Notes: generated by a model from the letters alone, not told the origin. DNA of 64,000 nucleotides from Bacteroidia bacterium (GCA_030639005.1 DAOWDN010000164.1:17369-81368), one strand, 5' to 3'; positions 675 through 20,378 are shown, counted from the first letter of the stretch. Program-made: numbers and translations.

Positions 675-740
675 TTCGGGAAATATGATTACAAATAAAT
701 TGTATTAAAATGCTGCTATTTTGCATTGTTCTTTTAATTA

Positions 741-1823: not shown

Positions 1824-2046
1824 ATTCTACAAGTTATTGCTTATTTTCTATTCTTCAAGGCAGACAATCTAGAGTATAGAATTCTAACGGTATAATATAA
1901 TCTATTTGTAAAATGATGTTCTAATACAGTCACATAAATCGAGATTGATTCTAATATCGCCGCGCTTATTGATCTTAGATTTATCGTCCAATCGTCTAGG
2001 GCTTATTTGGGGCAAAAATATTTCTAGTATACTGAGCATTTGGCTA

Positions 2047-2544: not shown

Positions 2545-2602
2545 AAATATTTGTTTTCACATTTTAATACTCAAGTGTTTCATTCTATCCTCAAATTCTC
2601 TA

Positions 2603-3868: not shown

Positions 3869-3983
3869 CAGTATAGAAGTTCGAAATAAGACTCAGATCA
3901 TATCAAATAGTATTTTCATTCCAGTCCCAAATGTGATAAGTCATTTTAATTAACACAAAGTTAGCTCATTGCGGCATTCTTCT

Positions 3984-4001
3984 AATTGTTATATAACAAT
4001 T
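3984..4001. promoter_or_regulatory. Perfect 18-bp palindrome aattgttatataacaatt; candidate operator
   Basis: Read directly from the sequence: aattgttat is the reverse complement of ataacaatt. It lies in the 191-bp gap between the PH-domain gene stop (4060) and the TIR gene start (3868). Confidence 0.3.
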
Positions 4002-4059
4002 GATAGACAAACATGAATACCTTTAGAAGCTATTGAGATTACATTAATCCAACACTACA

Positions 4060-4434
4060 CTACTTTACTTTTTCACTCATTAGTTCTCCAATCTCTTTGA
4101 TATCAATTCTACTACCAAATTTAATCTCGAAAACTCCCACACCTGAAATCCAAATTTTAAAATCACTATCAAAGTCAAAAGTCCCTGCTGTTTCCACTGA
4201 GAAAGATGAAATCTTAGAATACGGAAAGAATCTAAACTCTTTCTTTTTGCCAGTTAAACCTTGAATGTCAATAGCTATTAGCCTTCTGTCAGTAAAGATT
4301 ACTCTATCTCTAGCGTGTTTGTAGGATAGTATCACTTGCTCATTATCTGAAAGGTAGACTTCGTATAGCTCTTTTCCATCACTGGAATCAACTTTATCAA
4401 CAACACTAAATTTTGCTAATAGGTCTATGGCCAT
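4060..4434 (-). CDS. Bacterial PH-domain (YokE-like) protein
   Basis: 124 aa. The core VIFTDRRLIAIDIQGLTGKKKEFRFFPYSKISSFSVE is typical of bPH/YokE-like domains. Confidence 0.55.
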   Translation of the reverse strand: MAIDLLAKFSVVDKVDSSDGKELYEVYLSDNEQVILSYKHARDRVIFTDRRLIAIDIQGLTGKKKEFRFFPYSKISSFSVETAGTFDFDSDFKIWISGVGVFEIKFGSRIDIKEIGELMSEKVK

Positions 4435-5009
4435 AATTCTGGAATTTATTGTCCTAAGTTGTTTTTTATAGAGGTTTCATTCTGGGTACAAATGCTTCTT
4501 CACGTGGTATTAGGTTGTAATGCAATCAATTACAAAAGAATAGGCTTAGCGAGTGACAAATAGAGGACACCATTGAGCATTTTGTATGCCCAAGCAGTTA
4601 AAAACAGGATATCCACGTGGAATTCTTGTTGGGTTGTGCTAAAGACCATTCTTTCAGTAATAGAGGGTTTTCAATGGCTCAGGCTAATTTAAATTATCTT
4701 CAAACAAAATCCAATTAATACTTTCAACTACGAATAGGGGAACGTCTTATTTACACAAGCCCAGGATTGGATTTGCTCTTAGCTCCCCAACCCCCAATAT
4801 TGTCTATCATATAGTCCCCCTATGCCGTTATTTAGGATTTGAAAATGTGGCCTCTTTAATACGCGCGTAAAAGTGGTCCCAGTTTTAGAGGCACATGGTA
4901 TCATTTATCAAAGTGATTTGCTATAAAAAATGGGATACAAGTTCTATGGTTCAAGGTCTGTGGTTGGAATGATTGTTGCTCCTTCTTTCATAAGCAAGAT
5001 TATTGAAGT

Positions 5010-5672: not shown

Positions 5673-6017
5673 ATGTTGAGTCAAACCAAGTTCCTGGAGC
5701 TATACCAGCAGCAGCAAGAATCCGGATTAACCGTACGAGACTTTTGTTCGAATGAGGGCATTGCCCCATCTACTTTTTACTACTGGCAGAAAAAAGTCAA
5801 GAAGAATAATACAGTTCGTAATTTCATTCCCCTTTTAGTTGATCCTCCTCAGCCAATCGCCCCACAGAGTTATGTCAAGAGCCATGCCCCTGTCCCTGGC
5901 AGGGGGAACATCGATGATGCATTATTGGAGCTGGTGTATCCAAACGGTACCAAACTTCGGATCAGGCAGGACCTGGACCTTGCCCACCTGCGAACCCTTG
6001 TCTGCCTTATTGACTGA
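5673..6017 (+). CDS. tnpA: IS66 accessory protein TnpA (HTH)
   Basis: MLSQTKFLELYQQQQESGLTVRDFCSNEGIAPSTFYYWQKKV is a transposase-type HTH. I prefer the ATG at 5673 to the alternative start at 5631 given in the ORF track. Confidence 0.75.
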   Translation: MLSQTKFLELYQQQQESGLTVRDFCSNEGIAPSTFYYWQKKVKKNNTVRNFIPLLVDPPQPIAPQSYVKSHAPVPGRGNIDDALLELVYPNGTKLRIRQDLDLAHLRTLVCLID

Positions 6018-6459: not shown

Positions 6460-8166
6460 GTGGATAAACAACGAGACAAAGACAGCTTAATAGAGGCCCT
6501 TTTACAGGAGCGTGACGAGCTGTATCTGGAGCTGTCCAGGTTGCGTGAAATCGACAATGGTGCATTGAAAAAAGCGGAGGCTGTTCTAAAGAAGAAAGAC
6601 GAGAAGATAAAGCAGCAGGATGAGCAGATTAAACGCAAAGAAAAGCAGGTCACGTACCAGGAAGACAAGATTAAACAGCTGACCGATCAATTAGCCTGGT
6701 ACCGGCGCAAGTTCTGGAAGCCCACCAGTGAGAAGTACCTCCCCCAGGATCCCAACCAACGCACCATCGACTTTGATGGCCTGGAGGTATTGCCGGAGGA
6801 GGAAGAGGCCATCAAGGAAGCTGCCAGAGAAATCATCTCCTATGAACGCCAGAAGCCAGCGAAAGCTAAGAGGCAGCCTGTTCGTCAACCTATACCTGAC
6901 CATCTTCGCCGGGAAGAAGAGACCATCGAACCTGAGGATATTGATGAGAACTGGGAGCGTATCGGAGAAGAGGTTACTGAAATCCTGGAGCATAAACCAG
7001 GAGAGTTATACGTTCGTAGGATCGTTCGTCCCAAATATGTGCTGAAAAATGCTTCTTCGAAGCAGGTAGAGGATATTGAAGAGTCTGCAGATAAGATCAG
7101 GATCGGTTCATTACCACTGTTGCCACTACCCAGAAGCAATGCCGGGCCAAGTTTGCTGGCAGAGCTTCTGATCAATAAATACATGCACCACCTGCCTTTC
7201 CACCGGCAACTGGCCATGTTCAAACAATCCGGGATATCACTACCTGCCTCTACGGTCAATGGCTGGTTCAAGGGCAGTAGTGATTTACTCCGGGCATTGT
7301 ATGACAGGTTAAAAGAAATCGTACTGGCCACAGATTACATCCAGGTTGATGAGAGTACAGTACCGGTGATTGATAATAAGAAGCATCGGACGGTCAAGGC
7401 CTACTTATGGGTGGTGCGTTCTGTCATGGATAAGCTTCTGTTCTTCCATTATGACCAGGGCTCACGGGCCCAGAAGGTAGTGATTGAATTACTTCGTGAT
7501 TACCAGGGCGCTGTTCAAACGGATGGATATGAGGCCTATTCTATCTATGAGCGTAAGAAAGGTGTTTTGCTGCTGGGCTGCTGGGCGCATGCCAGACGCA
7601 AGTTTACAGAGGCATTAAAAGAAGATAAGGCCGGTGCTGAATACGCCCTGGAGCAAATCGGTATGATCTATAAGGTCGAGGACATGGCCACTGATCAGGA
7701 ACTGGACCATGAGCAGCGGGCAGAGCTTCGTAAGAAACTGGCCTATCCAGTACTCTGTGCTTTTGAAAAGTGGGTAGTGCAGTATTATCCGAAGGTGTTA
7801 CCCAAAGGAAGAATGGGCAAGGCATTGAGTTATACCTACTCTATTTTCCACCGTTTATCCAGATATCATCTGGATGGTCGATACCTGATGGATAACAATG
7901 GGGTCGAGAATGCCATCCGCCCCCTGGCTATCGGCAGAAAGAACTATATGTTCTGTGGAAATCATGATGCGGCAGAAAACGCTGCTATTATGTACTCCCT
8001 ACTGGGATCCTGCAAGGCCTGTAATGTAAATCCCAGGGAATGGCTCGTCGATGTACTGGCTCGGATCCCGGAATACAATAACGATTACTCTATGGATCTG
8101 GCTGATCTCCTACCTCACCGTTGGAAAACTTCCAGAGAACTCCAAGAAACTACTACTGAGTTGTAG
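6460..8166 (+). CDS. tnpC: IS66-family DDE transposase
   Basis: 568 aa with a coiled-coil N-terminus and the IS66 motifs HHLPFHRQ, YLWV, QTDGYEAY and CWAHARRKF. It uses a GTG start. Confidence 0.95.
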   Translation: MDKQRDKDSLIEALLQERDELYLELSRLREIDNGALKKAEAVLKKKDEKIKQQDEQIKRKEKQVTYQEDKIKQLTDQLAWYRRKFWKPTSEKYLPQDPNQRTIDFDGLEVLPEEEEAIKEAAREIISYERQKPAKAKRQPVRQPIPDHLRREEETIEPEDIDENWERIGEEVTEILEHKPGELYVRRIVRPKYVLKNASSKQVEDIEESADKIRIGSLPLLPLPRSNAGPSLLAELLINKYMHHLPFHRQLAMFKQSGISLPASTVNGWFKGSSDLLRALYDRLKEIVLATDYIQVDESTVPVIDNKKHRTVKAYLWVVRSVMDKLLFFHYDQGSRAQKVVIELLRDYQGAVQTDGYEAYSIYERKKGVLLLGCWAHARRKFTEALKEDKAGAEYALEQIGMIYKVEDMATDQELDHEQRAELRKKLAYPVLCAFEKWVVQYYPKVLPKGRMGKALSYTYSIFHRLSRYHLDGRYLMDNNGVENAIRPLAIGRKNYMFCGNHDAAENAAIMYSLLGSCKACNVNPREWLVDVLARIPEYNNDYSMDLADLLPHRWKTSRELQETTTEL

Positions 8167-8208
8167 AAATCTCTAAACAGTTTTGGAATTGGTTGGAAAA
8201 AGTGGGAG

Positions 8209-8229
8209 TGTACCAGACCGTATGCTTAC
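8209..8229 (-). repeat. IS66 right terminal inverted repeat
   Basis: See the left inverted repeat; 17 of 21 positions match. Confidence 0.8.
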
Positions 8230-8735
8230 TCATTTACTAGCTTAACTCCGGGCTCAAGGTTGGTCGGATTCTGAAACATATCTAAAATATAGACAGTTCT
8301 CTCATTCCTTTGCTCTACTAATAATTCGTAACCTTCACTCATCTTCAATTTACCACCAGCACTATTCGAATAATAATAGGTGTTTCCAGAAGTGTAAATT
8401 GCAATGAGAGCCTCAGGTTCTTCCTCCCAAATTCCAATTAATTGGTCAGGATTCAATTGGTCTTTTATCCTTTGAATTTCTTCGTCTGTGAGCCCATTTT
8501 TCTTTCTATTACCTGCTTGAGTTCTATTTGGGCTTCTAAGATCATTTGATTGTGTTTGAGAAGGCTTTTCTTGACTTGTTGAGTTTATAAGGCCAGTTAT
8601 ATCGGCTATTGCATATAATGAGCAGAACGCTAATGCAACAATAAATATCCATTGAATGAACTGGTCTGATGGATTTTCTTTTTTGCTCATCATTCTTTTG
8701 TTATTGATGGGATTCTTGCAGATAAATATAACCAA
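8226..8735 (-). pseudogene. 5' portion of a membrane-anchored hypothetical gene truncated by IS66
   Basis: The current stop codon (TAA, 8228-8226) lies inside the IS right inverted repeat, and the native frame resumes at 5607. The likely start is MSKKENPSDQ..., followed by a TM helix IQWIFIVALAFCSLYAI. Confidence 0.6.
8230..8237 (+). repeat. Right copy of the 8-bp target-site duplication tcatttac
   Basis: Identical to 5600-5607. Confidence 0.85.
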
Positions 8736-8803
8736 TAATTCAGACTATAGTCCGTGGACACAGGATGTTATTCTAGGTTCCTTTACTGTAGACTATTGTC
8801 CGA

Positions 8804-9031
8804 ATGGAGCTTATTCAGGTTTTCGGTATAACATTGAGCCAGTTGCGGAAGGAAGCTGGTTTGACTCAGGAAAAGTTAGCCGAGTTAGCTGGGTATGACC
8901 GGACATATATTTCACTTATTGAAAGGGGTCTTCGCAAACCGACAGTTCAGGCTCTATTCAATCTTTCAAAGCCCCTGGGGATCTCTCCTCACCAATTCAT
9001 CAAGTTTGTAGAAGAAGAATTATCTGAATGA
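8804..9031 (+). CDS. XRE-family HTH transcriptional regulator
   Basis: ITLSQLRKEAGLTQEKLAELAGYDRTYISLIERGLRKPTVQALFNLSKPLG is a canonical HTH_3 sequence. Confidence 0.82.
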   Translation: MELIQVFGITLSQLRKEAGLTQEKLAELAGYDRTYISLIERGLRKPTVQALFNLSKPLGISPHQFIKFVEEELSE

Positions 9032-9490
9032 TATGTCGAACACTTGAACTACAATAGAAAATGCAGCTAAGAATCCGGAGATTACTATGGCTGCAATTGC
9101 TATTTTATGGGCTTGTCTACTAAAAATCCTAGCTTCCTTCAATTCGAGATAATCGTATAAACTGAATAATTGTTCGGCCTGCAGAAAGCCACCTGATGAA
9201 TCATGCCTATTTGTTTGCATTCCAAGCTCCGATTGTACCTTGCCAGTTTTTACTTGATATGCGTATTGCGCCCACTGTGGGTTATAAAAGGTTAAATAGA
9301 ACCACTCCTTGAATTGAAATACGTTGTCCCCTTTAGTATAATAGCCGGTTTCCTCAAGATGCTTTATCATATCCTGAAAGCTGATCCCTTCTTTGATTCT
9401 TTCTTCTCCATATTGCAGGGCTGCTATATAGATATTAGATCGTCCTGATCGGGATTTCCTTTTCCTTAATGAGGGTTTTCTTGAAGTCAT
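9020..9490 (-). CDS. Hypothetical protein with a C-terminal TM helix
   Basis: 156-aa ORF that converges on the XRE gene and overlaps it by 12 nt. The C-terminus IAIAAIVISGFLAAFSIVVQVF is hydrophobic. Confidence 0.4.
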   Translation of the reverse strand: MTSRKPSLRKRKSRSGRSNIYIAALQYGEERIKEGISFQDMIKHLEETGYYTKGDNVFQFKEWFYLTFYNPQWAQYAYQVKTGKVQSELGMQTNRHDSSGGFLQAEQLFSLYDYLELKEARIFSRQAHKIAIAAIVISGFLAAFSIVVQVFDISFR

Positions 9491-9726
9491 AACTCTGAAG
9501 ATTTATCTATCCATAAATGTAGCTGTTCTTCTTTTGTTTCCAATACTTAATAAGCGCATAGGGGGAGCTATTGATTTTGAAAAACCAAGCGCCTTAATCG
9601 TGCATTACCAGTATAGCAGTGAAAAAGGCACTTGGTATGAATGGGAATCGCTGAATTGAAATAAAAAAAGGGATACAAAAAAGATTCTCCATTTTGCAAC
9701 AATTAGATAATCCATGCTAATTGGAA

Positions 9727-10041
9727 TTATTTCATTTTTTTTAGCTCTGGAATTCTAACTTTTAATTTATATCCAATTGGATATGCCGCCTCCCAAGTAC
9801 CTTTATCTGTATAAAGGAAAAACTCCAAATCGTTTTTTCCAGAGGCTTTAATTACTCCGAAACAGAAATATATTCCATATGTATTTTCAAGCATTTTTAG
9901 CTGGTCATGCAAATAATGCACAGGATTAGACCTATGTGTTATTACTGATCCGATTTTATATAGTGAACTCATGATATAAGAATTTAAGTGAATAAATAAT
10001 TCAGTTGAATATTCCAGCTTAATTGCTTCTCGGAGGCCCAC
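9727..10041 (-). CDS. Hypothetical protein
   Basis: ORF on the same strand as the neighbouring element genes. The start is uncertain, and an internal ATG would give MSSLYKIG.... Confidence 0.35.
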   Translation of the reverse strand: MGLREAIKLEYSTELFIHLNSYIMSSLYKIGSVITHRSNPVHYLHDQLKMLENTYGIYFCFGVIKASGKNDLEFFLYTDKGTWEAAYPIGYKLKVRIPELKKMK

Positions 10042-10106
10042 GGATCTGATCGGGATAACAAAAAGAATGTGCAGTGTTTTTCATAACGTCTAATACTTCA
10101 TATGAT

Positions 10107-11093
10107 TCATATTAAAATGCCGTATAATGCTTCTAATTTGCTTTCTAGTTCACTTATAATGCTCGTACTATGCAACTCATTACTTTGACTTACTAGCTCC
10201 CTCACGCTCCGCTTATATTGACTCCGGGTTACACTTGGATTTTTGACATCATACTCCTGAGAATCTATCAGATTGTACATCTCATTCAAGCCATATTCTC
10301 TAAGGCCGATCATGGCCAGGAAATCCTTAACCCAGCCCCTCCCAGAAACAAAAGAATTTGAAGGAATATCGAACTCAACGATATTCACGGTATTCAATTC
10401 TTTAGCTAAATGATCTATTAGACGTTGGAATGTGTCAGGAGAGTATAGGTCTGTGAACCTAAGTTCTTTTCCAAGGATAGGTTTTTCACTGTACTTCTTA
10501 ATCTTGACCTCGAAACGCAGAATATTCAGGTGCTTGATGAATTCAGGAAGGGCTTTGAAGGCTTCTCGGGATTTCATATCCTTCTTCATCTCTTTCAACT
10601 TATCATAGAAAGTGACTCCTTGGTAGTCAGTCTTAATTCGGAAATCCACTGTCTGGCCTTGATGAAGGACCCGCTGTCTTCTGGGATAGCCCTGTATGGC
10701 CTGTATGTAATTCGCTACCGGCCGTTTAACCACGAAATTAAATCCAAAGTCTAACCTAGTAATCTTCAGATTATCCAAGGGGACTTCAATAATGTCGGAT
10801 AAGGTGTCAAGGACCAGATGGACATCTGATGGTGTACAGGATGCTATATTGTTTCCATATAGGAATTTCGGGATGCTTCCTTCAATGGAAATTTGCTTGG
10901 CAACTTCATTGTGTAGGGGATAGCGGATGGAGACTTTGAAGTTTTTTATCATGCCTTTGAGGTACCCAGTTTGGGATTCCAGATTTTGTTGAATTTTGGG
11001 ATTCTCAATCCTGGGAGTAAGACTGGATATCGGGATTAGGTCAAGGTCTGGGATTGGTGTCAGGTCTAGGTATCCTCTGATTGTGTCTATCAT
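10107..11093 (-). CDS. Putative replication-initiation protein (phage/plasmid gene II/X-like)
   Basis: 328 aa. The N-terminal MIDTIRGYLDL... and the overall size resemble gpII/CRI-type rolling-circle Rep proteins often found with integrases in Bacteroidota elements. This is recognition only, with no catalytic motif verified. Confidence 0.35.
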   Translation of the reverse strand: MIDTIRGYLDLTPIPDLDLIPISSLTPRIENPKIQQNLESQTGYLKGMIKNFKVSIRYPLHNEVAKQISIEGSIPKFLYGNNIASCTPSDVHLVLDTLSDIIEVPLDNLKITRLDFGFNFVVKRPVANYIQAIQGYPRRQRVLHQGQTVDFRIKTDYQGVTFYDKLKEMKKDMKSREAFKALPEFIKHLNILRFEVKIKKYSEKPILGKELRFTDLYSPDTFQRLIDHLAKELNTVNIVEFDIPSNSFVSGRGWVKDFLAMIGLREYGLNEMYNLIDSQEYDVKNPSVTRSQYKRSVRELVSQSNELHSTSIISELESKLEALYGILI

Positions 11094-11143
11094 GATTTCT
11101 TCCTTTTATTATTGAACTTTAATAATTAGATACTCTTATTAAA

Positions 11144-11545
11144 TCATTGCATATGAGTGCTTGATCTAAGCTTTAGGATAAAGGGCCTGAAATATCCAGA
11201 CTGGAATAATTGTATTAGGATTGGAGCATACTGGCGAACACCTTTAATAATAAGAACTCGTGCTTTTTTGTTTTTGAGCAGGGTCCGAACAAGTATTATA
11301 TCATTCGTACCTTGAATTTGTGCAACTCCAAATTTCTCATTCAGTGGAATCTCTATTGTACATTTATCTGATAGACAAAGTCTACAGCAGAATCTGTGGT
11401 CCTTCATTGAATAGTTAAGTTCAAGGAATATATTGTGAGGGGGAACAACTTGGCAACCTTTATCGGTTGCTAATACTAACTGATATGAGATTTGGCTATT
11501 TGTCCTCGAAATAGACTTAAACTCATAGTATTGATCGATTTCCAT
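11144..11545 (-). CDS. Hypothetical protein
   Basis: 133-aa ORF in the same-strand gene array. Confidence 0.4.
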   Translation of the reverse strand: MEIDQYYEFKSISRTNSQISYQLVLATDKGCQVVPPHNIFLELNYSMKDHRFCCRLCLSDKCTIEIPLNEKFGVAQIQGTNDIILVRTLLKNKKARVLIIKGVRQYAPILIQLFQSGYFRPFILKLRSSTHMQ

Positions 11546-11619
11546 TGTCCGTGTATTAGTGATTTACACGAACAAAGAAACCTCATAAGGCACAGTGAAT
11601 CAATTGGTAGAGATTAATA

Positions 11620-12027
11620 TTAACTTAATTTAATCTCTCCTAAGCCCTTAACAATTTCTATAATTTCGGAGATGTTTTGTTTATCAAGATTTGATCTTAC
11701 TACACTTAAATTCTCGGGTTTAAAATCTTTGTTCTCCTTAGTAATGAAGTGAGAAGCAATCCGAACTAAATAGTTTTTCGAATATGAGTTGGGGACAATC
11801 CCGTTTGAAATCATTAATGAGAACAATCCAACAATTTTATCCTGTGTACCGAGCCATTGAATTTTACTCGGCTGAGTATCTCTTTCAGTGAAATGCAATA
11901 TGAATTCATCAAATAGACAATCTATCAATGTAAGGGAGGTTAGTTGCTCAAACAGGTTAGTCGTAATCGCTAATTTCTGTTCATCATTTCCAATAATATG
12001 AATGAAATCGCTTTTATCTCTTTTCAC
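11620..12027 (-). CDS. Hypothetical protein
   Basis: 135-aa ORF that overlaps the upstream ORF by 4 nt, a pattern typical of translational coupling. Confidence 0.5.
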   Translation of the reverse strand: MKRDKSDFIHIIGNDEQKLAITTNLFEQLTSLTLIDCLFDEFILHFTERDTQPSKIQWLGTQDKIVGLFSLMISNGIVPNSYSKNYLVRIASHFITKENKDFKPENLSVVRSNLDKQNISEIIEIVKGLGEIKLS

Positions 12028-12395
12028 GAATTCAATATCTGAATATCTGAATATCCAAATCCCAAATCATTATATATTTTATTTGGATCGTAGTGTTTAT
12101 TCTCTGTAATACCTTTATCTGCAATCATTTTAATCTTGATACACTCTTTCAGTAATTCATCAAACTTATCTTTTGGAAGATCTTCCTGTAACTCTATCAG
12201 ATCATCAATAATATACTTGATCTCTGATGATATATCCTGCCAATACAAATACCAATCATCTTCAGCGATCAAGTATTCGACCTGTCCACATTCAAGAATA
12301 TCAATGGAAACAAATTCGATAAATGAGTTTTGAATATCCTCGATTGCACGCCGACGTTGTTTATCAATTAATGATTGATATTTAGAAACATCCAT
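12024..12395 (-). CDS. Hypothetical acidic protein
   Basis: 123-aa ORF, 31 nt downstream of the integrase and overlapping the next ORF by 4 nt. Confidence 0.5.
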   Translation of the reverse strand: MDVSKYQSLIDKQRRRAIEDIQNSFIEFVSIDILECGQVEYLIAEDDWYLYWQDISSEIKYIIDDLIELQEDLPKDKFDELLKECIKIKMIADKGITENKHYDPNKIYNDLGFGYSDIQILNS

Positions 12396-12426
12396 ACCAG
12401 ATAGGATTAAGGTGCGAATAAAGCTA

Positions 12427-13509
12427 TTAAATATTAGGGAGATTGTCTACAGCTGACACTTTAGAAGTATCAATCACCTTTGCATAGATCTGTGTGGATT
12501 TAATATCCCGGTGCCCTAGGAGTTCTTTTACAGTCATCAAATTTGCACCATTAGCAAGAAGCATTACTGCATAAGTATGACGAGCGCAATGGAATGTGAT
12601 TTTTTTGCTGATTTTAGCTGCTTCTAGCAACTTTTGGAGTAGTCTCCTTATGTGCACTACATTAAATTGCAAATTGAATACTAGAGCATCTTTTGGGGGT
12701 CTATCCCCGATAAGTTTTAAGGCCGTTTCATTAAGTGGGATATGATTAATGTTCCCAGTCTTGGCTTGCCTCTTATGAATAGCAAATGATTTCCCATTCC
12801 CATTAAAATCTACTTCTTGGATTTGGCTCCATTTCAGTGTTGAGATATCCCCATACCTCAACCCAGTAAAACAAGAAAATAAAAAAGCACGTTGAACTAC
12901 ATCATGATGGAAATCCACATCATTGATCCTTTGAATCTCTTCAATAGTAAGATACCCCCTACTAGACTCTGGGACACGTATAGGATCAACAAAGAATGAA
13001 GGATTTTGAATAAGGATTTTATCCTTGACACTTTCACTTAAAGCGCATTTTACTTTAGCAAAATACGTTGAGGTTGAGGAGGGGGATACCTTAGTGTGCA
13101 AGTAATCAATAAATTCCTCTAACCATTCCCGGTCAATCTCTGTGAATAGTGCTGTCCCGTTGCAAAAGGATTGTAGATGTGTGTAGGTATTTTTCCAAGC
13201 CGTTTTTGAATTCCCTTCTCTCTTATTCAACTGTTTCTCAAAGTAAGCAATGAAGTTTTGGTTTAACTTTTCTTTGGTTGGGAATCCATAGGCCTCGTTG
13301 GCTAACTCCATCATCCGCTTGGCCTTGATATTCTCGGCCAATTTCAACTTCTCATTTCTGTAAGTCTTGTCATCGTATGGTTCAAGGTAGATGCCAAGGA
13401 ACTCCCTTTTGCGTTTTCCCTTGCGATAATAAATGTCCAAATACAGGCTATACCTGGGTTTCGTGTTTCCCTTGGATCGGATCTGGCGTTTCCTGAGATG
13501 TACTTTCAT
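12427..13509 (-). CDS. Tyrosine site-specific recombinase / integrase
   Basis: 360 aa. It has the Bacteroidota-type N-terminus (RYSLYLDIYYRKGKRKREFLGIYL) and a C-terminal catalytic region with LRYGDISTL, HCARHTYAVMLL and LLGHRDIKSTQIYAKV (the R..H..R..Y set). Confidence 0.93.
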   Translation of the reverse strand: MKVHLRKRQIRSKGNTKPRYSLYLDIYYRKGKRKREFLGIYLEPYDDKTYRNEKLKLAENIKAKRMMELANEAYGFPTKEKLNQNFIAYFEKQLNKREGNSKTAWKNTYTHLQSFCNGTALFTEIDREWLEEFIDYLHTKVSPSSTSTYFAKVKCALSESVKDKILIQNPSFFVDPIRVPESSRGYLTIEEIQRINDVDFHHDVVQRAFLFSCFTGLRYGDISTLKWSQIQEVDFNGNGKSFAIHKRQAKTGNINHIPLNETALKLIGDRPPKDALVFNLQFNVVHIRRLLQKLLEAAKISKKITFHCARHTYAVMLLANGANLMTVKELLGHRDIKSTQIYAKVIDTSKVSAVDNLPNI

Positions 13510-13729
13510 GCCCCATTCTTTGGGTTAATTTAAGGGACAAGAAGGACTTATCGAAGGAATACAATGTTAACAGCAATGAAAATATGCTGTTTCGATAGAG
13601 GTGAAATTATCTTGTCAGATATATGACATGAAAATAGGTACAATTGTGACACGATGGCAGTTATGTGGATATATTGGGGTTTGGCATGGACCTTGTTATA
13701 CCATTAACAGTTCTTTGAAAAGGCTCAGA

Positions 13730-13841
13730 TTTGACATACGGTTTACTCGTAAACCTCGTGTCGGGATTGCCCAAGACCTGTTATGGTTATTCAGATTCAT
13801 ATTGACGATTGTCATATGGTTTAATCTCAACAGTTCTGTTC
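13730..13841 (+). repeat. Copy 1 of a perfect 112-bp direct repeat
   Basis: Aligned by hand and identical at 112 of 112 positions to 14093-14204. The flanking bases differ on both sides. Confidence 0.95.
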
Positions 13842-14092
13842 GCATCTCCTTTGAAACCATTGTGCATGTTAGCACAAATCCTTTAGAAACAGTGGAATCA
13901 AGCTCTTTATGGAGTCGAGAGGCGAGGCGGTTTGCAGATAGTCATGAAAAAAATTGCAAAGTGGAAAAAATTCATAAATTGTAGGAATATGAAGAATATC
14001 GATTTGGCGTTTTGGCGGGAGTATCTGGAATCTGAAAAAATGCAATCAGTAACGCCCGCAACTTTTCGGATGAATTAATTGTCATCCTGGCG

Positions 14093-14204
14093 TTTGACAT
14101 ACGGTTTACTCGTAAACCTCGTGTCGGGATTGCCCAAGACCTGTTATGGTTATTCAGATTCATATTGACGATTGTCATATGGTTTAATCTCAACAGTTCT
14201 GTTC
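14093..14204 (+). repeat. Copy 2 of a perfect 112-bp direct repeat, ending 31 nt before the RT ORF
   Basis: Identical to 13730-13841, with an offset of 363 bp. Confidence 0.95.
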
Positions 14205-14235
14205 TCTAAATTGTAATTTGCTGACATGCTAATCA

Positions 14236-15579
14236 GTGGTCGATTATTCTAGGGGGATTACATATAGAAAACCATTCATGACAGCATCTCTTCTTGCAAA
14301 GATTTCCTCAACAGAAGCATTACACAATGCATGGAATAAGCTCAACAAACACAATCCAAATTCATGCGGTCTGTCTCGTGAAACAATAAATGAGTTCCAT
14401 AAGAATCTGAATTCCAGGATTCAATCATTAAGTTCAAATCTGCAGGAAGGGTCTTTTAAATTTCGTCCAACAAAGGCTGTTGTAATTCCCAAGGACAAGA
14501 ATAAGTTTAGGCCATTGCAAGTTCCAGAAGTCTCTGATAGGATTGTACTTAAAAGTATGGCCATAGAATTGGAACAAATATTCGAAGAAAGGCTGAAGGT
14601 TAGCAGAGATGTTAGTTTTGCATATCAAAAAGGAGTTGGTATTCGTGATGCAATGAGGCAGATTGATGTGCTGCATAAGATGGGCAGGTGTTTTGTCCTT
14701 GAAGCAGATATAGTGAATTTCTTTGGTGAAGTTGACAAGGAAAAACTTCTTAAACAGCATTTATTTCCATCATTACCTGATTCAAGCATTAATGATCTGA
14801 TTCAAAGTGGGCTTAATCAATCTGTAGGAGGTACTAAAATACTATCTAAAGACCAGAAGAAACTATTTTCTAATGTTGGAAATGGGATCCCACAAGGAAA
14901 TTCATTGTCACCGTTATTGTCTAATATCTATCTAGCTCCTTTTGATGATTATCTTAAAAGTAGAAAGCTAGGACTAGTCAGGTATGCAGATGATTTTATT
15001 GTAATGTGTGATTCTATGGATCAGGCTCTGGAATCATATGACCTTTGTAAAAACTTTCTGAATAATGAGCTTGGTTTAAAAATATATAGCATAGAGGATG
15101 GCTCAAAGACAAAGGTCATAGACCTTGGTAATGGTGTCCTAAACTTTCTTTCAATCGAATTCAATGGGTCGGAGTTTTATCCTTCTATTGAGAATTTTGA
15201 GAGATTCAAAAATAAGGTCAGGAACATCTGTAATAATCCAAATGCTCAAGCTGATATACTGACTACAATCACAAAAATTAGGAATGCACTTGATGGATGG
15301 TTGTCAGCCTATTTTTATACAGGGGTCGATAGGTATTTGGAGGAACTTGATTTTTATATCAATCGTCAGTTATATTTAAATTTGAGAGCCTTTGGTTTTG
15401 TGTTAAGTAGGAATTCTACAAGCAAGATTCCATATAAATATAGGGTGCCTAACGTTAGTAGTCATTGTCTGTCAAAGGTCCAGAGAGCCAATTCAGGAAT
15501 ACCAATTTCTAAAGATTTAGTAAAATCCAAAAGAGAAATGGCTATTGATGAATCGGATATAGAAGAGATAGATTTGTGA
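14236..15579 (+). CDS. Reverse transcriptase, group-II-intron-like / defence-associated, with no additional enzymatic domain
   Basis: RT motifs are FRPLQVPEVSDRIVLK, VLEADIVNFFGEV, GIPQGNSLSPLLSNIYL and LVRYADDFIVMC, with a thumb/maturase-like KIRNALDGWLSAYFYTG. The track start is a GTG at 14236, and the first ATG at 14278 (MTASLLAK...) is an equally plausible start. Confidence 0.9.
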   Translation: MVDYSRGITYRKPFMTASLLAKISSTEALHNAWNKLNKHNPNSCGLSRETINEFHKNLNSRIQSLSSNLQEGSFKFRPTKAVVIPKDKNKFRPLQVPEVSDRIVLKSMAIELEQIFEERLKVSRDVSFAYQKGVGIRDAMRQIDVLHKMGRCFVLEADIVNFFGEVDKEKLLKQHLFPSLPDSSINDLIQSGLNQSVGGTKILSKDQKKLFSNVGNGIPQGNSLSPLLSNIYLAPFDDYLKSRKLGLVRYADDFIVMCDSMDQALESYDLCKNFLNNELGLKIYSIEDGSKTKVIDLGNGVLNFLSIEFNGSEFYPSIENFERFKNKVRNICNNPNAQADILTTITKIRNALDGWLSAYFYTGVDRYLEELDFYINRQLYLNLRAFGFVLSRNSTSKIPYKYRVPNVSSHCLSKVQRANSGIPISKDLVKSKREMAIDESDIEEIDL

Positions 15580-15602
15580 CAACCGGGTGAAAAGTAAGGT
15601 AC

Positions 15603-15644
15603 AAAAAAAGCCCTTGATGAAAATCAAAGGCATTGTGTACTTTT
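15603..15644. terminator. Hairpin gcccttgat-GAAA-atcaaaggc flanked by A7 upstream and a T-run downstream; probable bidirectional intrinsic terminator
   Basis: The stem is 15610-15618 paired with 15623-15631, with 8 of 9 pairs. On the minus strand it is followed directly by TTTTTTT, which would terminate the 15804..16499 gene. On the plus strand it sits 30 nt after the RT stop, with a weaker T tract at 15641-15644. Confidence 0.55.
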
Positions 15645-15803
15645 AAACTAGTTTTTAACTCCCCCTCCTATGGCAAGCATGATATCCACTTCATCACAAT
15701 TTCCGGACTCAAAATGTTTTCATGTCTCAGTCTTAGGTTTAATTTAAATGATAAGAGGACTTTTTGAAGGAATTATAAAGCATAGTTACGTTATCTTGTT
15801 TGT

Positions 15804-16499
15804 TTAAAAGACTCGATTTAAAGAAAAACCTGACTCAACAATGTATTTGAAGAAATCTCTGCCAATTGGAGTGATTATTACTGAGTTAGCCTCAATCTGA
15901 ATCAAACCATAACTTGTAAGAAATTCGAGATAATTTTTAAAAGGGTAGTTTTCATAAAACTTTGGGTCATTTCTTTTAGCCTCGTCAAAAAAAGGCATTA
16001 TTGAATCCAGTGTCTCATTTTTGCTTGAGTTTAGCCTCTCAAGAATTCGAATTTGGCTCCCATAAATCAAGGTATATATGCGGTTGAACTGCATGATTAA
16101 ATAAATCATTTGGGAATAGCTAAATAGTACTTTTTCCCTTTCTTCATGCGTTTTAAATGAATCAACGTTAGATTCATTGAGAACTGCTTTACGAAAGACC
16201 TCAAGTGTTTCAGGATTGAAATTACTTTGAATTCTCTCTAAATTCTTATTAGGAATCTCTTTGATTAATTTCTCAAATGGTGAACCTTCATCGCTGGATT
16301 GCTTTTTTGGAATCTCTGTCTCAATGCCAGTACCCTTAAACCCTATTGATTTGATTCGATTAATGAAATCCTTTAGGGGTTTTCTGAGGATAAGAAAGAT
16401 AATTATTACTACTAGAGGCCAAATTAGAATCCCTAACAATGTAGTAATGTCTTTCAATAAATGTAATAGGACTACTTGAGGTATGAAGCTTAATAGCAT
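15804..16499 (-). CDS. Hypothetical N-terminally membrane-anchored protein
   Basis: 231 aa. The TM segment is LLGILIWPLVVIIIFLIL and the soluble remainder ends in a possible wHTH-like part (LEFLTSYGLIQIEANSVIITPIGRDFFKYI). The gene is AT-rich and convergent with the RT. Confidence 0.5.
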   Translation of the reverse strand: MLLSFIPQVVLLHLLKDITTLLGILIWPLVVIIIFLILRKPLKDFINRIKSIGFKGTGIETEIPKKQSSDEGSPFEKLIKEIPNKNLERIQSNFNPETLEVFRKAVLNESNVDSFKTHEEREKVLFSYSQMIYLIMQFNRIYTLIYGSQIRILERLNSSKNETLDSIMPFFDEAKRNDPKFYENYPFKNYLEFLTSYGLIQIEANSVIITPIGRDFFKYIVESGFSLNRVF

Positions 16500-16603
16500 T
16501 GTGGGGGGCTTTGATAGTTAACTCAATACAATTTAGTGTAAGATACAATTCGTGAGACAATACCGGGACATAAAAAGACAAATCTAGTTAAATACGAAGC
16601 TTA

Positions 16604-18589
16604 TTATTCTCTTGGTTTGTGATAATGACAAAAATTCTCACTCTCCAAAATCTTGATTTTACATGAATTACCTTTAGAGTTTGTTGCACCACAATATTTG
16701 AATTTCTGTTCTTCTTTCTTGCTTCCTGGTGTAATCTCCGTTTCTTCTTTTCTTTTCTCTTTGAAGTCAACCTTTCCCCCATTCACAACTGTTGCGGAAT
16801 GTTTAAATTTGGATTTCGTAACAGGTTCATTTCCTGATATCCACTCCCCAACGTCCTCCGGACTCAAGCCTGGCAGATCAAGTTTATTTTTCTTCTTGTA
16901 CCCGTTGAGGTCATTGGCCAGTTTTCCAGGCTTCTCCACCTCTTTCAACTTCTCGATGGTGGTATACCCCAGCTTCTGCAAGGGTTTGATCCATTCAGCA
17001 GGTACTCCAAGTGCCAGGTAATCTTCCTTTTGACTTTCGGCTTTTGGCTTTTGACCTGCTTCGGGTTTCATTTGCGGGAAGAAGAGTACCTCCTGGATGG
17101 AGGTCTGATTGGTCATCAGCATAACCAGGCGGTCCATGCCCATTCCCATTCCGGCGGTGGGGGGCATGCCGTATTCCAGCGAACGGACAAAGTCCATATC
17201 GATAAACATCGCTTCGTCGTCTCCCTTTTCGGAGAGTTTCAGCTGGTCCTGGAACCTCTCCAGCTGGTCGATGGGGTCGTTCAATTCGGTGTAGGCGTTG
17301 CAGATCTCCTGGCTATTGACAATCAACTCGAAACGTTCGGTCAGTTCAGGGTTGTCACGGTGCTTCTTGCAGAGAGGTGACATCTCTATGGGGTAGTCTG
17401 TGATAAAGGTGGGCTGGATCATATGGGGTTCAGCCTTTTCACCGAAGATCTCATCGATGATCTTTCCTTTGCCCATGGTGTCGTCCAGTTCCACGTTCAG
17501 GCAGTCGGCCACATCCCTCAGACCTGCCTCGTCCATGCCCGCGATATCATACCCGGTACTCTCTTTGATGGCGTCCAGCATGGTGATCTTTTTGAAGGGC
17601 CGTTTGAAGTCGATCTCCTGGTCTCCTACCATTACTTTGGTGGTTCCGTGGAGGTCAAGGGCCACCTTTTCGATCATCTCCTCGGTGAAATCCATCATCC
17701 ATTTATAGTCCTTATAAGCCACGTAGATCTCCAGGATAGTGAACTCGGGATTGTGGGTCCGGTCCATTCCTTCATTGCGGAAGTCCTTGGAAAATTCATA
17801 CACTCCGTCGTAACCACCCACAATCAGCCTTTTCAGGTAGAGCTCGTTGGCGATGCGCAGGTAGAGCGGAATATCCAGGGAGTTGTGGTGGGTAATAAAT
17901 GGTCTGGCTGCGGCTCCACCCGGGATGGGCTGCAGAATGGGGGTCTCCACCTCCAGGTATCCCCTCTCATTAAACAGTTCCCGCAGGGAGTTATAGATCT
18001 GGGTCCGCTTTCTGAACAGTTCTCTCGATTCGGGATTGATAATCAGGTCCACATACCTCTGGCGGTACCGGTATTCGGCATCGGTAACCGCATCATACAC
18101 CTTTCCGTCAGCTTCTTTAACAATGGGCAGGGGCCTGATCGATTTGCTCAGGATCACCAGCTCTTTCACATGGGCCGTGATCTCCCCGGTTTGTGTACGG
18201 AACGCGAATCCCCTGATCCCGATAATATCCCCAATATCGAGCAACTTCTTAAAAACAGTATTGTACAGGGTCTTGTCTTCGCCCGGACAAAGCTCATCTC
18301 TGTTCAGGTAAATCTGGATCCTTCCCGAAGCGTCCTGGATCTCTGCGAATGAAGCTTTCCCCATGATGCGCCGGCTCATGATCCTTCCAGCCAGGGAGAT
18401 ATCCTGGAGCGCTTTTTCATCAGTCTCAAAAACAGATAAGATTTCGGACGAAAGGTGACTGATCTTAAAGGTTTCGGGCGGGTAGGGATTGTAGCCTAGT
18501 TTCTTAATCTCCTCCAGGGAGTTACGCCTGATTTGTTCCTGTTCACTGAGTCCTGGATTTTGCATTTTTGATTTTATTTTTCCGCTCAC
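16604..18589 (-). CDS. lysS: Lysine--tRNA ligase (class II) with an unusually long C-terminal tail
   Basis: Class II LysRS motifs are [28 protein letters not shown] and [14 protein letters not shown]. About 151 aa follow the core's ...FFPQMKPE, and the last ~80 codons are AT-rich. Confidence 0.95.
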
Positions 18590-18610
18590 AAAGGTATAAA
18601 AAAGATTATG

Positions 18611-18618
18611 TTAATTTT
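18611..18618 (+). promoter_or_regulatory. Candidate Bacteroidota -7 promoter box TAATTTTG for recJ
   Basis: Matches the TAnnTTTG consensus, 45 nt upstream of the recJ ATG in the lysS/recJ divergent gap. I saw no clear -33 TTTG element. Confidence 0.3.
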
Positions 18619-18662
18619 GCAGGAGGAGCAGGGACGCCTGCCTGTGAAATTGCCATTAAATC

Positions 18663-20378
18663 ATGAATAAAAACTGGGTTATAAAATCATCGGGTGATGA
18701 AAAAGTCATCAACTCCCTTTCCCGGGAACTCGGTATTGAAAGGCCTCTTGCCCAGTTGCTTGTCCAGCGTGGTATTACCACCTTCAAAGAGGCAAAGGAT
18801 TTTTTTAGATCCGACCTTTCCAACCTGCACGATCCGTTCCTGATGAAGGATATGGATGTGGCCATACAACGCATCCAGGATGCCATTCAGGCGGGAGAAA
18901 AGGTGCTTGTTTACGGCGATTATGATGTGGATGGCACCACTGCTGTTGCCCTGGTCTACTCCTTCTTTAAGAATCATTTCAAGGAGATTGATTACTACAT
19001 TCCCGACAGGTATGATGAGGGTTATGGAGTCTCTTTGAAAGGAATTGATTACGCATCACAGCATGGCTTCAGCCTGATTATTGCGCTGGACTGTGGCATC
19101 AAGGCTGTGGATAAGATCGACTATGCCCAGAAAAAAGGGGTTGAGTTTATCATCTGCGATCACCACAATCCGGGTGAAGATATTCCTGATGCAGTGGCTG
19201 TACTGGATTCCAAGCAGGATGGGTGTGGCTATCCCTATAAAGAATTGTCGGGTTGTGGTGTTGGGTTTAAGTTGATTCAGGCTTATGGTATTAAGACCGG
19301 ACAAGCTCCCGAATCCATTTACAACTTCCTCGATCTGGTGGTGGTTAGCATTGCTTCAGATATTGTTCCCATCACAGGCGAAAACAGGATCATGGCCCAC
19401 TTTGGTTTAAAAAAACTGAACGAAAAACCCTCCATCGGGCTGAAGGCCATCAAAGAGGTGGCAGGCATTGAATCGCAGAATATTACTATCGAGGATATTG
19501 TTTTTAAGATAGGGCCCAGGATCAATGCTGCGGGCAGAATGGAATCGGGGAAAAAGTCGGTGGATCTGCTGGTATGCGAGAATAGAAAAGACGCTGGGAT
19601 TATCAGCAAAAAGATTAACAATTTTAACCTTGACCGGAGAAGCATCGATACCGATATTACGCGGCAGGCCATTGAAATGATTCAGGGTGATGCTTCACAG
19701 AAAGAGCTTAACTCAACGGTATTGTATAATCCGGATTGGCATAAAGGGGTGATCGGAATTGTGGCTTCACGGCTACTCGACCATTTTTACAGGCCTACTG
19801 TGATCCTGACCAAATCCAACGGGTTTGCCACCGGGTCGGCCAGGTCTGTCAGCGGATTTGACCTCTACAAGGCTATTGAGTCATGCAGCGATTTGCTCGA
19901 GAATTTCGGGGGACATAAATATGCAGCTGGCTTAACCATGAAGATTCAGAACCTCCCGAAGTTCAGGGAACGTTTTGAAGAAATTGTGAGCGAAACCATC
20001 GATCCGGAAATGCTGATCCCTGTGGTAGAGATTGATACCGAGCTGCAATTGAAGGAGATCAATGAGAAATTTTACCGCATCCTAAAACAGTTCCAGCCCT
20101 TTGGTCCTGAAAATATCAGTCCGGTTTTTCTCTCCGAGAACGTGGTTGATAACGGGTATGGCAGGACCGTTGGCAACAATGGTGAGCACCTGAAACTTAC
20201 CCTCATACAGGAGGAGAACCCCTTTCAGGTATTTCCTGCCATCGGGTTTCACCAGGGTAACGATTTTAGCAAAGTAAATAAGGGGGCCCCGTTTGATATT
20301 TGCTATCAGCTGATGGAGAATGAATTCAGGGGCAGGGTCAGCCTCCAGATTCACCTGCTTGATACTAAGTTTGACTAG
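18663..20378 (+). CDS. recJ: Single-stranded-DNA-specific exonuclease RecJ
   Basis: DHH and DHHA1 motifs: VLVYGDYDVDGTTAVAL, IIALDCG, FIICDHH and GGHKYAAG. Confidence 0.93.
   Translation: MNKNWVIKSSGDEKVINSLSRELGIERPLAQLLVQRGITTFKEAKDFFRSDLSNLHDPFLMKDMDVAIQRIQDAIQAGEKVLVYGDYDVDGTTAVALVYSFFKNHFKEIDYYIPDRYDEGYGVSLKGIDYASQHGFSLIIALDCGIKAVDKIDYAQKKGVEFIICDHHNPGEDIPDAVAVLDSKQDGCGYPYKELSGCGVGFKLIQAYGIKTGQAPESIYNFLDLVVVSIASDIVPITGENRIMAHFGLKKLNEKPSIGLKAIKEVAGIESQNITIEDIVFKIGPRINAAGRMESGKKSVDLLVCENRKDAGIISKKINNFNLDRRSIDTDITRQAIEMIQGDASQKELNSTVLYNPDWHKGVIGIVASRLLDHFYRPTVILTKSNGFATGSARSVSGFDLYKAIESCSDLLENFGGHKYAAGLTMKIQNLPKFRERFEEIVSETIDPEMLIPVVEIDTELQLKEINEKFYRILKQFQPFGPENISPVFLSENVVDNGYGRTVGNNGEHLKLTLIQEENPFQVFPAIGFHQGNDFSKVNKGAPFDICYQLMENEFRGRVSLQIHLLDTKFD

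Follow-up and report, generated by a model that had tools for sequence, protein, structure and literature searches.

This study concerns a stand-alone reverse transcriptase (RT) gene of the group-II-intron-like type and the leader in front of it, both found in a 64,000-nucleotide stretch of DNA from a Bacteroidia bacterium (GCA_030639005.1, DAOWDN010000164.1:17369-81368; the whole stretch is referred to as the window). The leader contains two identical 112-nt copies of a direct repeat, A1 and A2, which enclose a segment B; B1 denotes the part of B that follows A1, and B2 the part that leads into A2. Comparison with related loci indicates that this A-B-A arrangement is the hallmark of an uncharacterised bacterial RT family and that the two A copies evolve in concert. 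The leader also appears to be folded as RNA, carries an internal promoter motif (P_B), and holds a reading frame that seems to belong to a gene circularly permuted in the chromosome. As the preferred though tentative reading, it is proposed that the RT assembles this gene by transferring cDNA strands from one A copy to the other, in a manner comparable to DRT2 and Neo.

The direct repeat and its distribution

The A copies agree at 112 of 112 positions and start 363 bp apart, with 251 bp between them (Table 1). Both this identity and the immediate divergence of the flanks around both copies, which a preliminary description of the window had reported, were confirmed. When up to 3 mismatches were allowed, the 112-mer was found exactly twice in the window, and 0 occurrences were expected from 100 shuffles. 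No conventional gene lies between the RT and the divergent integrase gene upstream of it.

Homologous loci, with RTs that are 32-56% identical, were fetched from Bacteroidota, Chloroflexota and Acidobacteriota. The duplicated leader was present in every lineage of the clade that retains B, which amounts to about 17 distinct lineages in at least three phyla (Table 2). The repeat measures 88-219 nt and the period 322-474 bp, and in all of these loci A2 ends 53-128 nt ahead of the RT ATG. The same scan revealed no comparable repeat in about 73 other group-II-type RT loci, one of which contains an unrelated 105-bp tandem array far upstream. The repeat also travels with the RT homologues: in a metagenome scan the core of A was encountered at nine places, each time (9/9) about 180 nt upstream of an RT homologue. 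Across 28 loci, no protein neighbour of the RT was conserved. The preliminary description knew of no RT system with a duplicated element of this kind; a literature search likewise found no published description of the repeats or the open reading frame (ORF) of this clade, and no report of an associated RNA for a group-II-like RT lineage.

The family is abundant: a single one of its RT sequences occurs in over 4,000 data blocks from assemblies of Bacteroides and from metagenomes of the gut. The surroundings of the module vary, and include mobile islands with integrase or Rep-like genes, neighbourhoods that resemble defence islands, and plain housekeeping regions. No family members were found in viral contigs, phage records or plasmid records. 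Five metagenome contigs (L091, L094, L095, L096 and L103) start within the leader, at points 90-360 nt ahead of the RT. Such breaks are expected if assemblers break at the repeat, so that short-read surveys would under-count the A-B-A arrangement. A locus of Pedobacter sp. Hv1 (L001, 5340-6000; 43% identity) has a single A-like element and the conserved spacer. About 470 nt of different, GC-rich sequence precede this element, with a sub-threshold match to the Flavo-1 RNA (E=0.086).

Table 2. Length of the repeat A and period of the A-B unit in related lineages
Lineage	A (nt)	Period (bp)
Bacteroides	117	379/380
Maribellus	117	389
Imperialibacter	116	369
Flagellimonas-type	118	380
Christiangramia	116	372
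Two metagenome lineages (L105, L106)	116 and 121	363 and 389
Closest relative (L088)	114	363
Sphingobacteriales	113	322
Mucilaginibacter	88-92	335
Chloroflexota metagenome-assembled genome	116	360
Acidobacteriaceae metagenome-assembled genome	139	392
Another Bacteroidetes metagenome-assembled genome	219	474

A reading frame that appears circularly permuted

The leaders of 12 Bacteroidota loci were aligned and found to be conserved along their entire length. One reading frame, taken as frame 0, passes through A1 and B1 with 0 stops in 12 of 12 loci, as against 44-89 stops in total in each of the five other frames. Insertions and deletions in A and B1 are multiples of 3. In most loci, in-frame stops occur 6-72 nt upstream of A1, where no conserved start is found; a conventional protein gene in A1-B1 was rejected on these grounds and for its lack of codon bias. 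Traced upstream from A2, the frame extends without a stop for 57-105 nt into B2 in 10 of 12 loci, which brings it close to the promoter; in the remaining two, it is open over the entire unit. It closes at most 8 codons (1-8) after A2 in most loci.

A conserved ATG at 13989 follows P_B by a few nucleotides. The A/B1 frame is the -1 frame of this ATG, and the two frames overlap at a conserved run of six or seven A residues (A6 in the window, 14035-14040); a stem-loop begins 11 nt downstream of the run. In its zero frame, the ATG opens a short upstream ORF (uORF) of 29 aa in the window (13989-14078). Across the loci its own frame gives just 18-55-aa peptides and was rejected as the coding frame, since continuity needs the -1 frame. 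In L104, the A run is lost and a 2-nt deletion fuses the two frames. The run, the stem 11 nt downstream and the fusion in L104 are the three features from which a -1 shift is suggested.

The open frame joins the post-promoter ATG only in the order B2-A-B1. This order points to a gene whose C-terminal half (A1-B1) would lie upstream of its own promoter and of its N-terminal half (P_B-ATG-B2-A2). When B2-A-B1 is translated from the ATG and the frame is shifted once by -1 in the A run, the window ORF comprises 119 aa over 0.98 unit and ends at TAG 13982-13984. This stop falls 4 nt before the ATG, which corresponds to one full turn of the unit. In genomic order, by comparison, the frame stops at TAA 14207-14209 after A2 and would give a truncated product of 74 aa. 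The earlier statement that the leader contains no credible coding sequence therefore holds for conventional ORF calling, but it overlooked the permuted ORF.

In other lineages the frame behaves similarly when units are joined into concatemers. With the -1 shift, the ORF spans 0.99 unit in L089, 1.03 units in both L102 and L081, and 1.12 units in L088. It is endless with one -1 shift per unit in L090, L087, L097 and L099, whose periods of 380 or 389 bp are 2 mod 3, and endless without any shift in L104, L105, L003 and L006. In L003 and L006, A cannot be aligned to the other sequences, yet each has one stop-free frame over the whole unit. In L007, the ATG frame runs through B2-A-B1 without a shift to a TAA located 1 nt ahead of the ATG. 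For 14 of 18 loci, only 0-9 of 500 dinucleotide shuffles reached the longest sense run in the concatemer; for L007 the number was 16 of 500. An endless, Neo-like ORF derived from the relation 363 = 3 x 121 was considered and rejected, because many periods are not divisible by 3 and the window frame has a stop. That relation, noted in the preliminary description, fails as a general rule, with about half of the periods being multiples of 3; the reading frame nonetheless traverses the 363-bp unit.

All predicted products share one hydrophobic stretch of 19 residues, encoded by A, and a polar basic tail. The Pfam families gave no match to the predicted permuted proteins. The peptide predicted at the A-to-B1 junction of the permuted ORF contains NLNSSVRISFETIVH; the predicted A-to-B1 peptide is NLNSSVRISFETIVHVSTNPLETVESSSLWSR, compared with NLNSSVL at the end of A2. 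In the acidobacterial locus L005 (5800-7266), the frame open through A2 runs stop-free into the RT ORF. An A2-RT fusion protein is formally possible there; this genome is GC-rich, and the continuity may be due to chance.

Concerted evolution and copy number of the repeat

Within a genome, A1 and A2 are 98-100% identical, whereas between genomes the median identity of A is 62%. In close relatives, A differs at 5-24 sites, and the changes occur in parallel in both copies. The boundaries of A are equal in all Bacteroidota lineages, with TTnGAC at the start and GTTCTGTG at the end. This pattern shows concerted evolution of the two copies. It also bears out active homogenisation, one of the two origins that the preliminary description had offered for the perfect identity.

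The number of copies varies. A three-copy allele, A-B-A-B-A, was found in one Bacteroides genome (L083). Single-A loci (L098, L100, L101 and L107) have normal flanks and an intact RT and lack B; L107 (P0008), which had been chosen as a hold-out for the ORF prediction, proved to be one of them. Contrasts in copy number exist between near-identical elements, namely L101 and L097, L098 and L104, and L083 and L081. An apparent 92-nt insertion in A1 of L093 was rejected as a run of N in the scaffold. Mismatches between A1 and A2 in the relatives are T>G, CT>AG, A>T and G>T. In L104 (A2 at 4820-4935) and L007 (A2 at 5825-5937), the sole difference between the copies is a TAA stop in A2 in the ORF frame, with A1 open. 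Such stop-making mismatches, 2 of roughly a dozen across the loci, are suggestive but not significant.

RNA folds and predicted promoters of the leader

The aligned leaders contain conserved RNA folds. Within A, there is a P1 hairpin (13733-13762) with compensatory changes, an invariant GGAUUGCCC, and an AGAAC that pairs with the terminal GUUCU. A1 and B1 form one fold, in which GGCGG at 13926-13930 in B1 (consensus GGCRR) pairs with UUGCC at 13767-13771 in A1; three further helices follow this pairing, and the B1 helices lie at 13839-13930. Covariation supported the fold: 94.8% of the cells were paired, and pairs with two-sided changes numbered 11, compared with 4.4 in shuffles (0/500). Slid controls gave 34-43% paired cells. 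The sense strand is indicated as the folded strand, because G-U pairs are numerous. In B2, a two-tier stem-loop (14051-56/14089-94 enclosing 14068-73/14082-87) has 95.3% paired cells, compared with 81.7% in shuffles (0/500).

Of the two stem-loops that the preliminary description had placed in each copy, the first (GAC..GGTT/AACC..GTC) corresponds to helix 1 and is supported by covariation, while the second (tgac-gatt-gtca) sits in a region that is variable among the relatives. The palindrome aacagNNctgtt at the end of each copy did not prove to be conserved either; the conserved part is the GUUCU that pairs with AGAAC inside A. Upstream of A1, where the additional core aacagttct had been seen, there is indeed a third GTTCT. 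GTTCT thus occurs three times, at this upstream site, here named S0 (Table 1), and at the 3' end of both A copies (13833-13837 and 14196-14200). For A1 only, S0 could offer AGAAC an alternative partner.

The spacer between A2 and the RT ATG contains another stem-loop in the RNAalifold consensus, with an outer stem (14212-22/14254-62) and an inner hairpin (14230-34/14242-46) that shows compensatory changes. By analogy with DIVa of group II introns, it is a candidate site for RT binding or initiation. No Rfam RNA family was found in the leader, the window or nine related loci, and the same Rfam searches detected no ribozyme able to yield a unit-length or circular RNA.

Two promoters are predicted in the leader. 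The upstream candidate is a sigma-54-like element, which is kept in 11 of the 12 aligned leaders and is perfect (TGGCAC-N5-TTGC) in L107. It would start an RNA near 13708, just ahead of A1. S0 lies about where this RNA would begin, and a cDNA reaching that 5' end would finish with AGAAC, complementary to the ends of A. The internal promoter P_B, which the preliminary description had missed, lies in the 251 bp that separate the A copies and faces A2 and the RT. Its Bacteroidota-type consensus, TTG-N18/19-TAnnTTTG, occurs at the same position in the 12 Bacteroidota loci and in L007; the match in L006 is approximate only, and the acidobacterial L005 has TTGACA..TAGAAT at this position. The octamer TAAATTGT occurs twice, as the -7 box of P_B (13975-13982) and at 14207-14214, directly after A2, where relatives also have TAtATTGT. 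A second RT promoter at the border of A2 and the spacer is possible on the basis of this sequence.

Table 1. Features of the leader, the RT gene and neighbouring genes in the window
Feature	Position	Strand	Description
HTH (helix-turn-helix) gene	8804-9031		low-GC island
Phage_CRI/G2P-like Rep	10107-11093	-	328 aa
Tyrosine integrase	12427-13509	-	divergent from the RT module
Candidate upstream promoter	13682-13697	+	sigma-54-like -24/-12, TGGCAT-N5-TTG; consensus match
S0	13710-13714	+	GTTCT, 16 nt upstream of A1
A1, first repeat copy	13730-13841	+	112 nt; 5' domain of the structured RNA, with an AGACC/GUUCU closing stem; encodes the hydrophobic middle of the predicted ORF
B1	13842-13984	+	3' domain of the structured RNA and C-terminal part of the predicted permuted ORF
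P_B, predicted internal promoter	13954-13982	+	TTG 13954-56, 18 nt, TAAATTGT 13975-82; faces A2 and RT
B2	13989-14092	+	predicted start of the permuted ORF: ATG 13989, uORF, A6 run, stem-loop
A2, second repeat copy	14093-14204	+	identical to A1; in the 5' untranslated region of the predicted P_B-driven RT transcript
Spacer stem-loop, A2 to RT ATG	14212-14262	+	RNAalifold consensus; compensatory changes in the inner hairpin
RT ORF	14278-15579	+	RVT_1, weak GIIM, YADD; group-II-intron-like
231-aa protein	15804-16499	-	hydrophobic N-terminal segments; converges on RT

The reverse transcriptase

The RT ORF is real and ends at 15579 as previously described, but it most probably begins with the ATG at 14278, in agreement with the N-termini of the homologues, and not with the GTG at 14236. 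The protein matches RVT_1 (E=3e-23) and, more weakly, the GIIM/maturase family (E=3e-4; 21.1 bits against a cutoff of 23). It scores 206 bits with TIGR04416, the model of group II intron RT/maturases, which is under the cutoff of 300. The best solved structures matched are those of group IIC intron RTs and G2L4. Across 15 RT homologues, the motifs YADD and QGxxxSP do not vary, and the clade has its own C-terminal tail, CLSxxQRxNSGIP.

Other RT models matched at far lower scores or without their defining partners, from which the RT is taken to be stand-alone and group-II-like. The Drt2 model NF041746 reached 74.8 bits against a cutoff of 390, with only the palm/thumb part aligned, and the PADLOC Drt2 model 75.6 bits, compared with 200 for the best PADLOC model. 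RT_UG17 was the third-best PADLOC match with 134 bits, RT_UG27 gave 58.7 bits, and the retron St85 model gave 57 bits (cutoff 235). A match to the Cas1_IIIb model was confined to its RT part (model positions 4-275 of 617).

No group II ribozyme was detected: Rfam Intron_gpII and group-II-D1D4 had no match at E<=1 in window positions 8000-20000, there was no match at gathering score in the whole window, and nine related loci gave none either. TRF and Rfam revealed no CRISPR array in the 64 kb, and no cas genes were present among the ORFs examined near the RT. The earlier view of a stand-alone RT without intron ribozyme, CRISPR array or target gene of a diversity-generating retroelement (DGR) is supported by these results. 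By its sequence, the RT appears closest to group II intron RTs and, having no ribozyme, is of the kind known as G2L.

A possible mechanism and its alternatives

Of the readings offered in the preliminary description, that of a template or non-coding RNA module is supported, as the repeat appears to be part of an RNA or template module associated with the RT. The locus may be viewed as a group-II-intron-like RT with 1.3 copies of a 363-bp unit upstream, arranged as A1-B-A2. The unit would be both a structured RNA and a compact gene, running from P_B and the ATG through B2, a -1 shift at the A run, A and B1 to the stop. Because of the permuted order, only the RT and the truncated 74-aa product could be made from P_B. 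The RT would copy the RNA of the locus, and the cDNA of B1 and A1 would anneal through A to A2 on the same or another transcript. It would then extend into B2 and beyond, and repetition would give concatemers with P_B and the full ORF. Parallels would be the strong-stop transfer of retroviruses, or the rolling-circle copying of a terminally redundant template by an RT. The cDNA order ...B2-A-B1-P_B-B2-A... would restore a complete gene (119 aa in the window, endless in several relatives), and the effector would be a small protein with one hydrophobic helix. By analogy with DRT2 and Neo, its role is most plausibly phage defence or abortive infection. The sequence analysis shows the A-B-A arrangement, the concerted evolution of A, the RNA folds, the promoter motif and the permuted open frame; we infer cDNA synthesis, A-to-A transfer, the -1 shift and translation, and likewise toxicity and the role in defence.

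Several observations weigh against this assembly model. The shuffle statistic is weak for the window (40/500) and not significant for L002 (61/500) and L005 (65/500). L002 has an in-frame stop after the ATG, and antisense frames are long or endless in L088 and L003. Substitutions in A and B1 lack third-position bias and are mostly non-synonymous, which means that the sequence of the product, if made, is hardly constrained except in remaining open and hydrophobic. For an endless frame, the -1 shift or one added nucleotide per unit would be needed wherever the period is not divisible by 3, as is the case for about half of the periods. The four single-A loci keep an intact RT. The three-copy allele L083 of a cultured Bacteroides encodes a complete ORF; thus the product would not be strongly toxic alone. 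To our knowledge, group-II-like RTs have no RNase H, and a 112-nt transfer would need a host factor or strand displacement.

It is rather unlikely, though far from negligible, that the module acts as RNA only. A1 and B1 would then be a non-coding RNA that is bound or partly copied by the RT, as in retrons, DRT2, DRT9 and DRT10, and the frame would be a by-product or a regulatory uORF. A2 would be an RT-binding domain in the RT 5' untranslated region, similar to DIVa, for autoregulation or loading in cis. The sense-strand covariation in A1+B1, the B2 stem-loop and the spacer agrees with such a role, and so do the non-coding appearance of the substitutions, which show no third-position bias, and the single-A loci, in which A and the spacer are retained together with an intact RT. 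The invariance of GGAUUGCCC and AGAAC/GUUCU is what a protein-binding site would show. However, an RNA-only role leaves unexplained the stop-free A+B1 frame in 12 of 12 loci and in the unalignable distant lineages, the multiple-of-3 indels, and the linkage to the ATG only in the permuted order. In addition, functional mimicry needs no 100% identity over 112 nt.

A switch at the DNA level is improbable. Recombination between A1 and A2, by RecA, slippage or phage recombinases, would change the number of copies between one, two and three or excise a 363-bp A-B circle. The complete gene would thereby be assembled or destroyed and P_B added or removed, with a different role for the RT. The natural one-, two- and three-copy alleles in near-identical elements are products of unequal crossing-over in this scenario; a three-copy array or an excised circle holds the complete P_B-ATG-B2-A-B1 gene, and gene conversion would also account for the identity of A1 and A2. 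Yet the strict linkage to one RT clade and the fixed geometry across phyla would be unexplained. Furthermore, collapse to one copy is irreversible, so the two-copy state would need to be kept by selection alone.

Non-mutagenic retrohoming of the DGR kind is very improbable. Here, A2 would be a template repeat whose cDNA replaces A1 inside the ORF and keeps the copies identical. The layout of repeat, about 250 bp, repeat, structured spacer of about 70 nt and RT is indeed that of a DGR, with a hairpin just after A1 and with A1 in an open frame, and retrohoming would yield sharp boundaries of identity. DGR RTs carry a different motif at the QGxxxSP position, but the RT of this family has the group II motif, best matches group II models and is not of the DGR type. 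The copies are identical, the few mismatches between A1 and A2 in relatives are not adenine-specific, neither Avd nor a target with a C-type-lectin fold is present, and unchanged copying has no obvious use.

The remaining two readings of the preliminary description, a DIRS-like attachment or recombination site of the neighbouring tyrosine integrase and a recent chance duplication, are refuted: although the integrase is adjacent and divergent in a low-GC island with a Rep-like gene, neither an integrase nor a Rep gene lies within 3-6 kb of the module in L089, L090 and L104-L107, and identical boundaries are shared by lineages whose RTs are merely 32-56% identical. An explanation by a tRNA and attachment (att) site was likewise rejected, as the window contains no tRNA and the module occurs without an integrase.

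Comparison with known systems

In DRT2, template jumping on a non-coding RNA produces concatemeric cDNA in which a promoter and a never-ending ORF, neo, are created; each jump adds one nucleotide (PMC11100668). The system described here resembles DRT2 in its stand-alone RT, in the structured RNA just upstream, in a unit with one stop-free frame, endless across joined copies in some of the lineages, and in a promoter and ORF that would form a complete gene only after head-to-tail joining of units. The added nucleotide keeps the frame in DRT2; a -1 shift per unit would do so here for periods that are 2 mod 3. The differences are considerable. The RT lineage is another one (75 bits against the Drt2 cutoff of 390), and the unit of 322-474 nt is about three times longer than the 120 nt of DRT2. 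DRT2 has one unit with 3-nt ACA jump sites, while 1.3 units with identical ends of about 110 nt are found here. The DRT2 promoter spans the junction, whereas P_B lies inside the unit. The neo gene is antisense to its RNA, in contrast to the present ORF, which is read in the direction of both the RT and the RNA fold. Finally, the DRT2 ORF is endless, but in many lineages here the ORF ends at a stop after one unit.

The best sequence and structure matches of the RT are to group II RTs and G2L4, an enzyme that acts in DNA repair. The RT shares with them RT0-7, YADD, QGxxxSP and a thumb/maturase-like region, and has no endonuclease domain. G2L RTs are defined by the lack of an intron ribozyme (PMC2602772), as is the case here; the motif of G2L4 is YIDD (PMC4244168). 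No associated RNA, direct repeats or ORF have been reported for the G2L groups, unlike the A-B-A leader and the clade's own C-terminal tail.

Another comparison is with retroviruses and long terminal repeat (LTR) elements. Retroviral, LTR and pararetroviral templates are terminally redundant, through their R regions or, in hepadnaviruses and caulimoviruses, through RNAs of greater than genome length. The present unit also has identical direct repeats of about 100 nt at its ends and an internal promoter that reads through the downstream repeat, and homogenisation of the repeats is what strand-transfer reverse transcription produces. In contrast to those elements, the RT gene lies outside the unit, the unit is only 363 bp long, gag- or integrase-type genes are absent, and no primer-binding site was identified. 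The resemblance is one of logic, not of ancestry. It is possible, with considerable reserve, that a group-II-like RT uses terminal repeats of about 110 nt in a retrovirus-like transfer, which would make a silent permuted gene complete, one unit long or endless, and amplify it. RNA-templated gene synthesis, known only from DRT2, would then have arisen independently in another RT lineage and with another jumping mechanism.

Among systems with RNA upstream of an RT, UG27 has arrays of structured units that are gained and lost among close loci, and is common in Bacteroidota (bioRxiv 10.64898/2026.09.22.753630). Its units are about 150 nt long, divergent within an array, and yield cDNAs of 50-100 nt; the system comprises three proteins with a YSDD RT (bioRxiv 10.64898/2026.09.22.753630). 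The repeats described here differ in being identical and in forming 1.3 units with a 363-bp period, and the RT has YADD and no conserved accessory genes. DRT10/UG17, formerly G2L3, also combines an RT with an upstream non-coding RNA. G2L3 has V in place of the A of YADD (PMC4244168). UG17 needs a SLATT-5 partner and makes 7-nt tandem repeats, whereas the present RT has YADD and neither SLATT nor any other conserved partner. The msr/msd of retrons are flanked by inverted repeats, while the repeats here are direct. The system appears to be of a known kind, an RT with a templating RNA and possibly with gene synthesis, but its RT lineage and architecture are different.

If the assembly model is true, RNA-templated gene assembly has been reached at least twice and is not a peculiarity of DRT2, and the long terminal repeats liken bacterial reverse transcription to the first strand transfer of retroviruses. 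A class of genes with halves in the wrong chromosomal order would be invisible to standard annotation, and many gut Bacteroides would carry such order-scrambled hidden genes. The abundance of the family makes the hypothesis directly testable, both with strains that can be cultured and with RNA-seq data that already exist. Even if gene assembly is wrong, an RT-RNA system with a sharply defined, phylum-spanning signature is new, the concerted evolution of a 112-nt element is clear, and the A-B-A leader is a practical marker for finding the family.

Surroundings of the module in the window

The module lies in a low-GC island (window positions 8000-16600), with a GC content of 0.35-0.40 compared with about 0.47-0.52 in the flanks. 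The 231-aa gene that converges on the RT matched no Pfam, NCBIfam or PADLOC family, and it is absent beside the RT in the other loci examined. In Bacteroides and Maribellus loci, the RT is located on similar small elements with genes for an HTH protein and for a protein that is G2P-like or of Rep size, an arrangement that other loci lack. An imperfect direct repeat of 39 nt (79%) at 13504-13542 and 15718-15756 brackets the leader and the RT. It begins with TTTCATG, the reverse complement of which holds an ATG start, and its first copy overlaps the integrase start codon. The second copy resembles a remnant of the 5' end of another integrase gene, a pattern that suggests acquisition of the RT module as a cassette or by way of tandem islands.

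The lysyl-tRNA synthetase ORF (16604-18589, minus strand, 661 aa) has its last 100 or so codons in the low-GC DNA of the island. In L088, the closest relative, the RT directly abuts the 3' end of lysS. Insertion may therefore have taken place at this end of lysS, and the C-terminal extension may derive from the island. A second low-GC stretch (0.31-0.36) occupies positions 1-5000 of the window.

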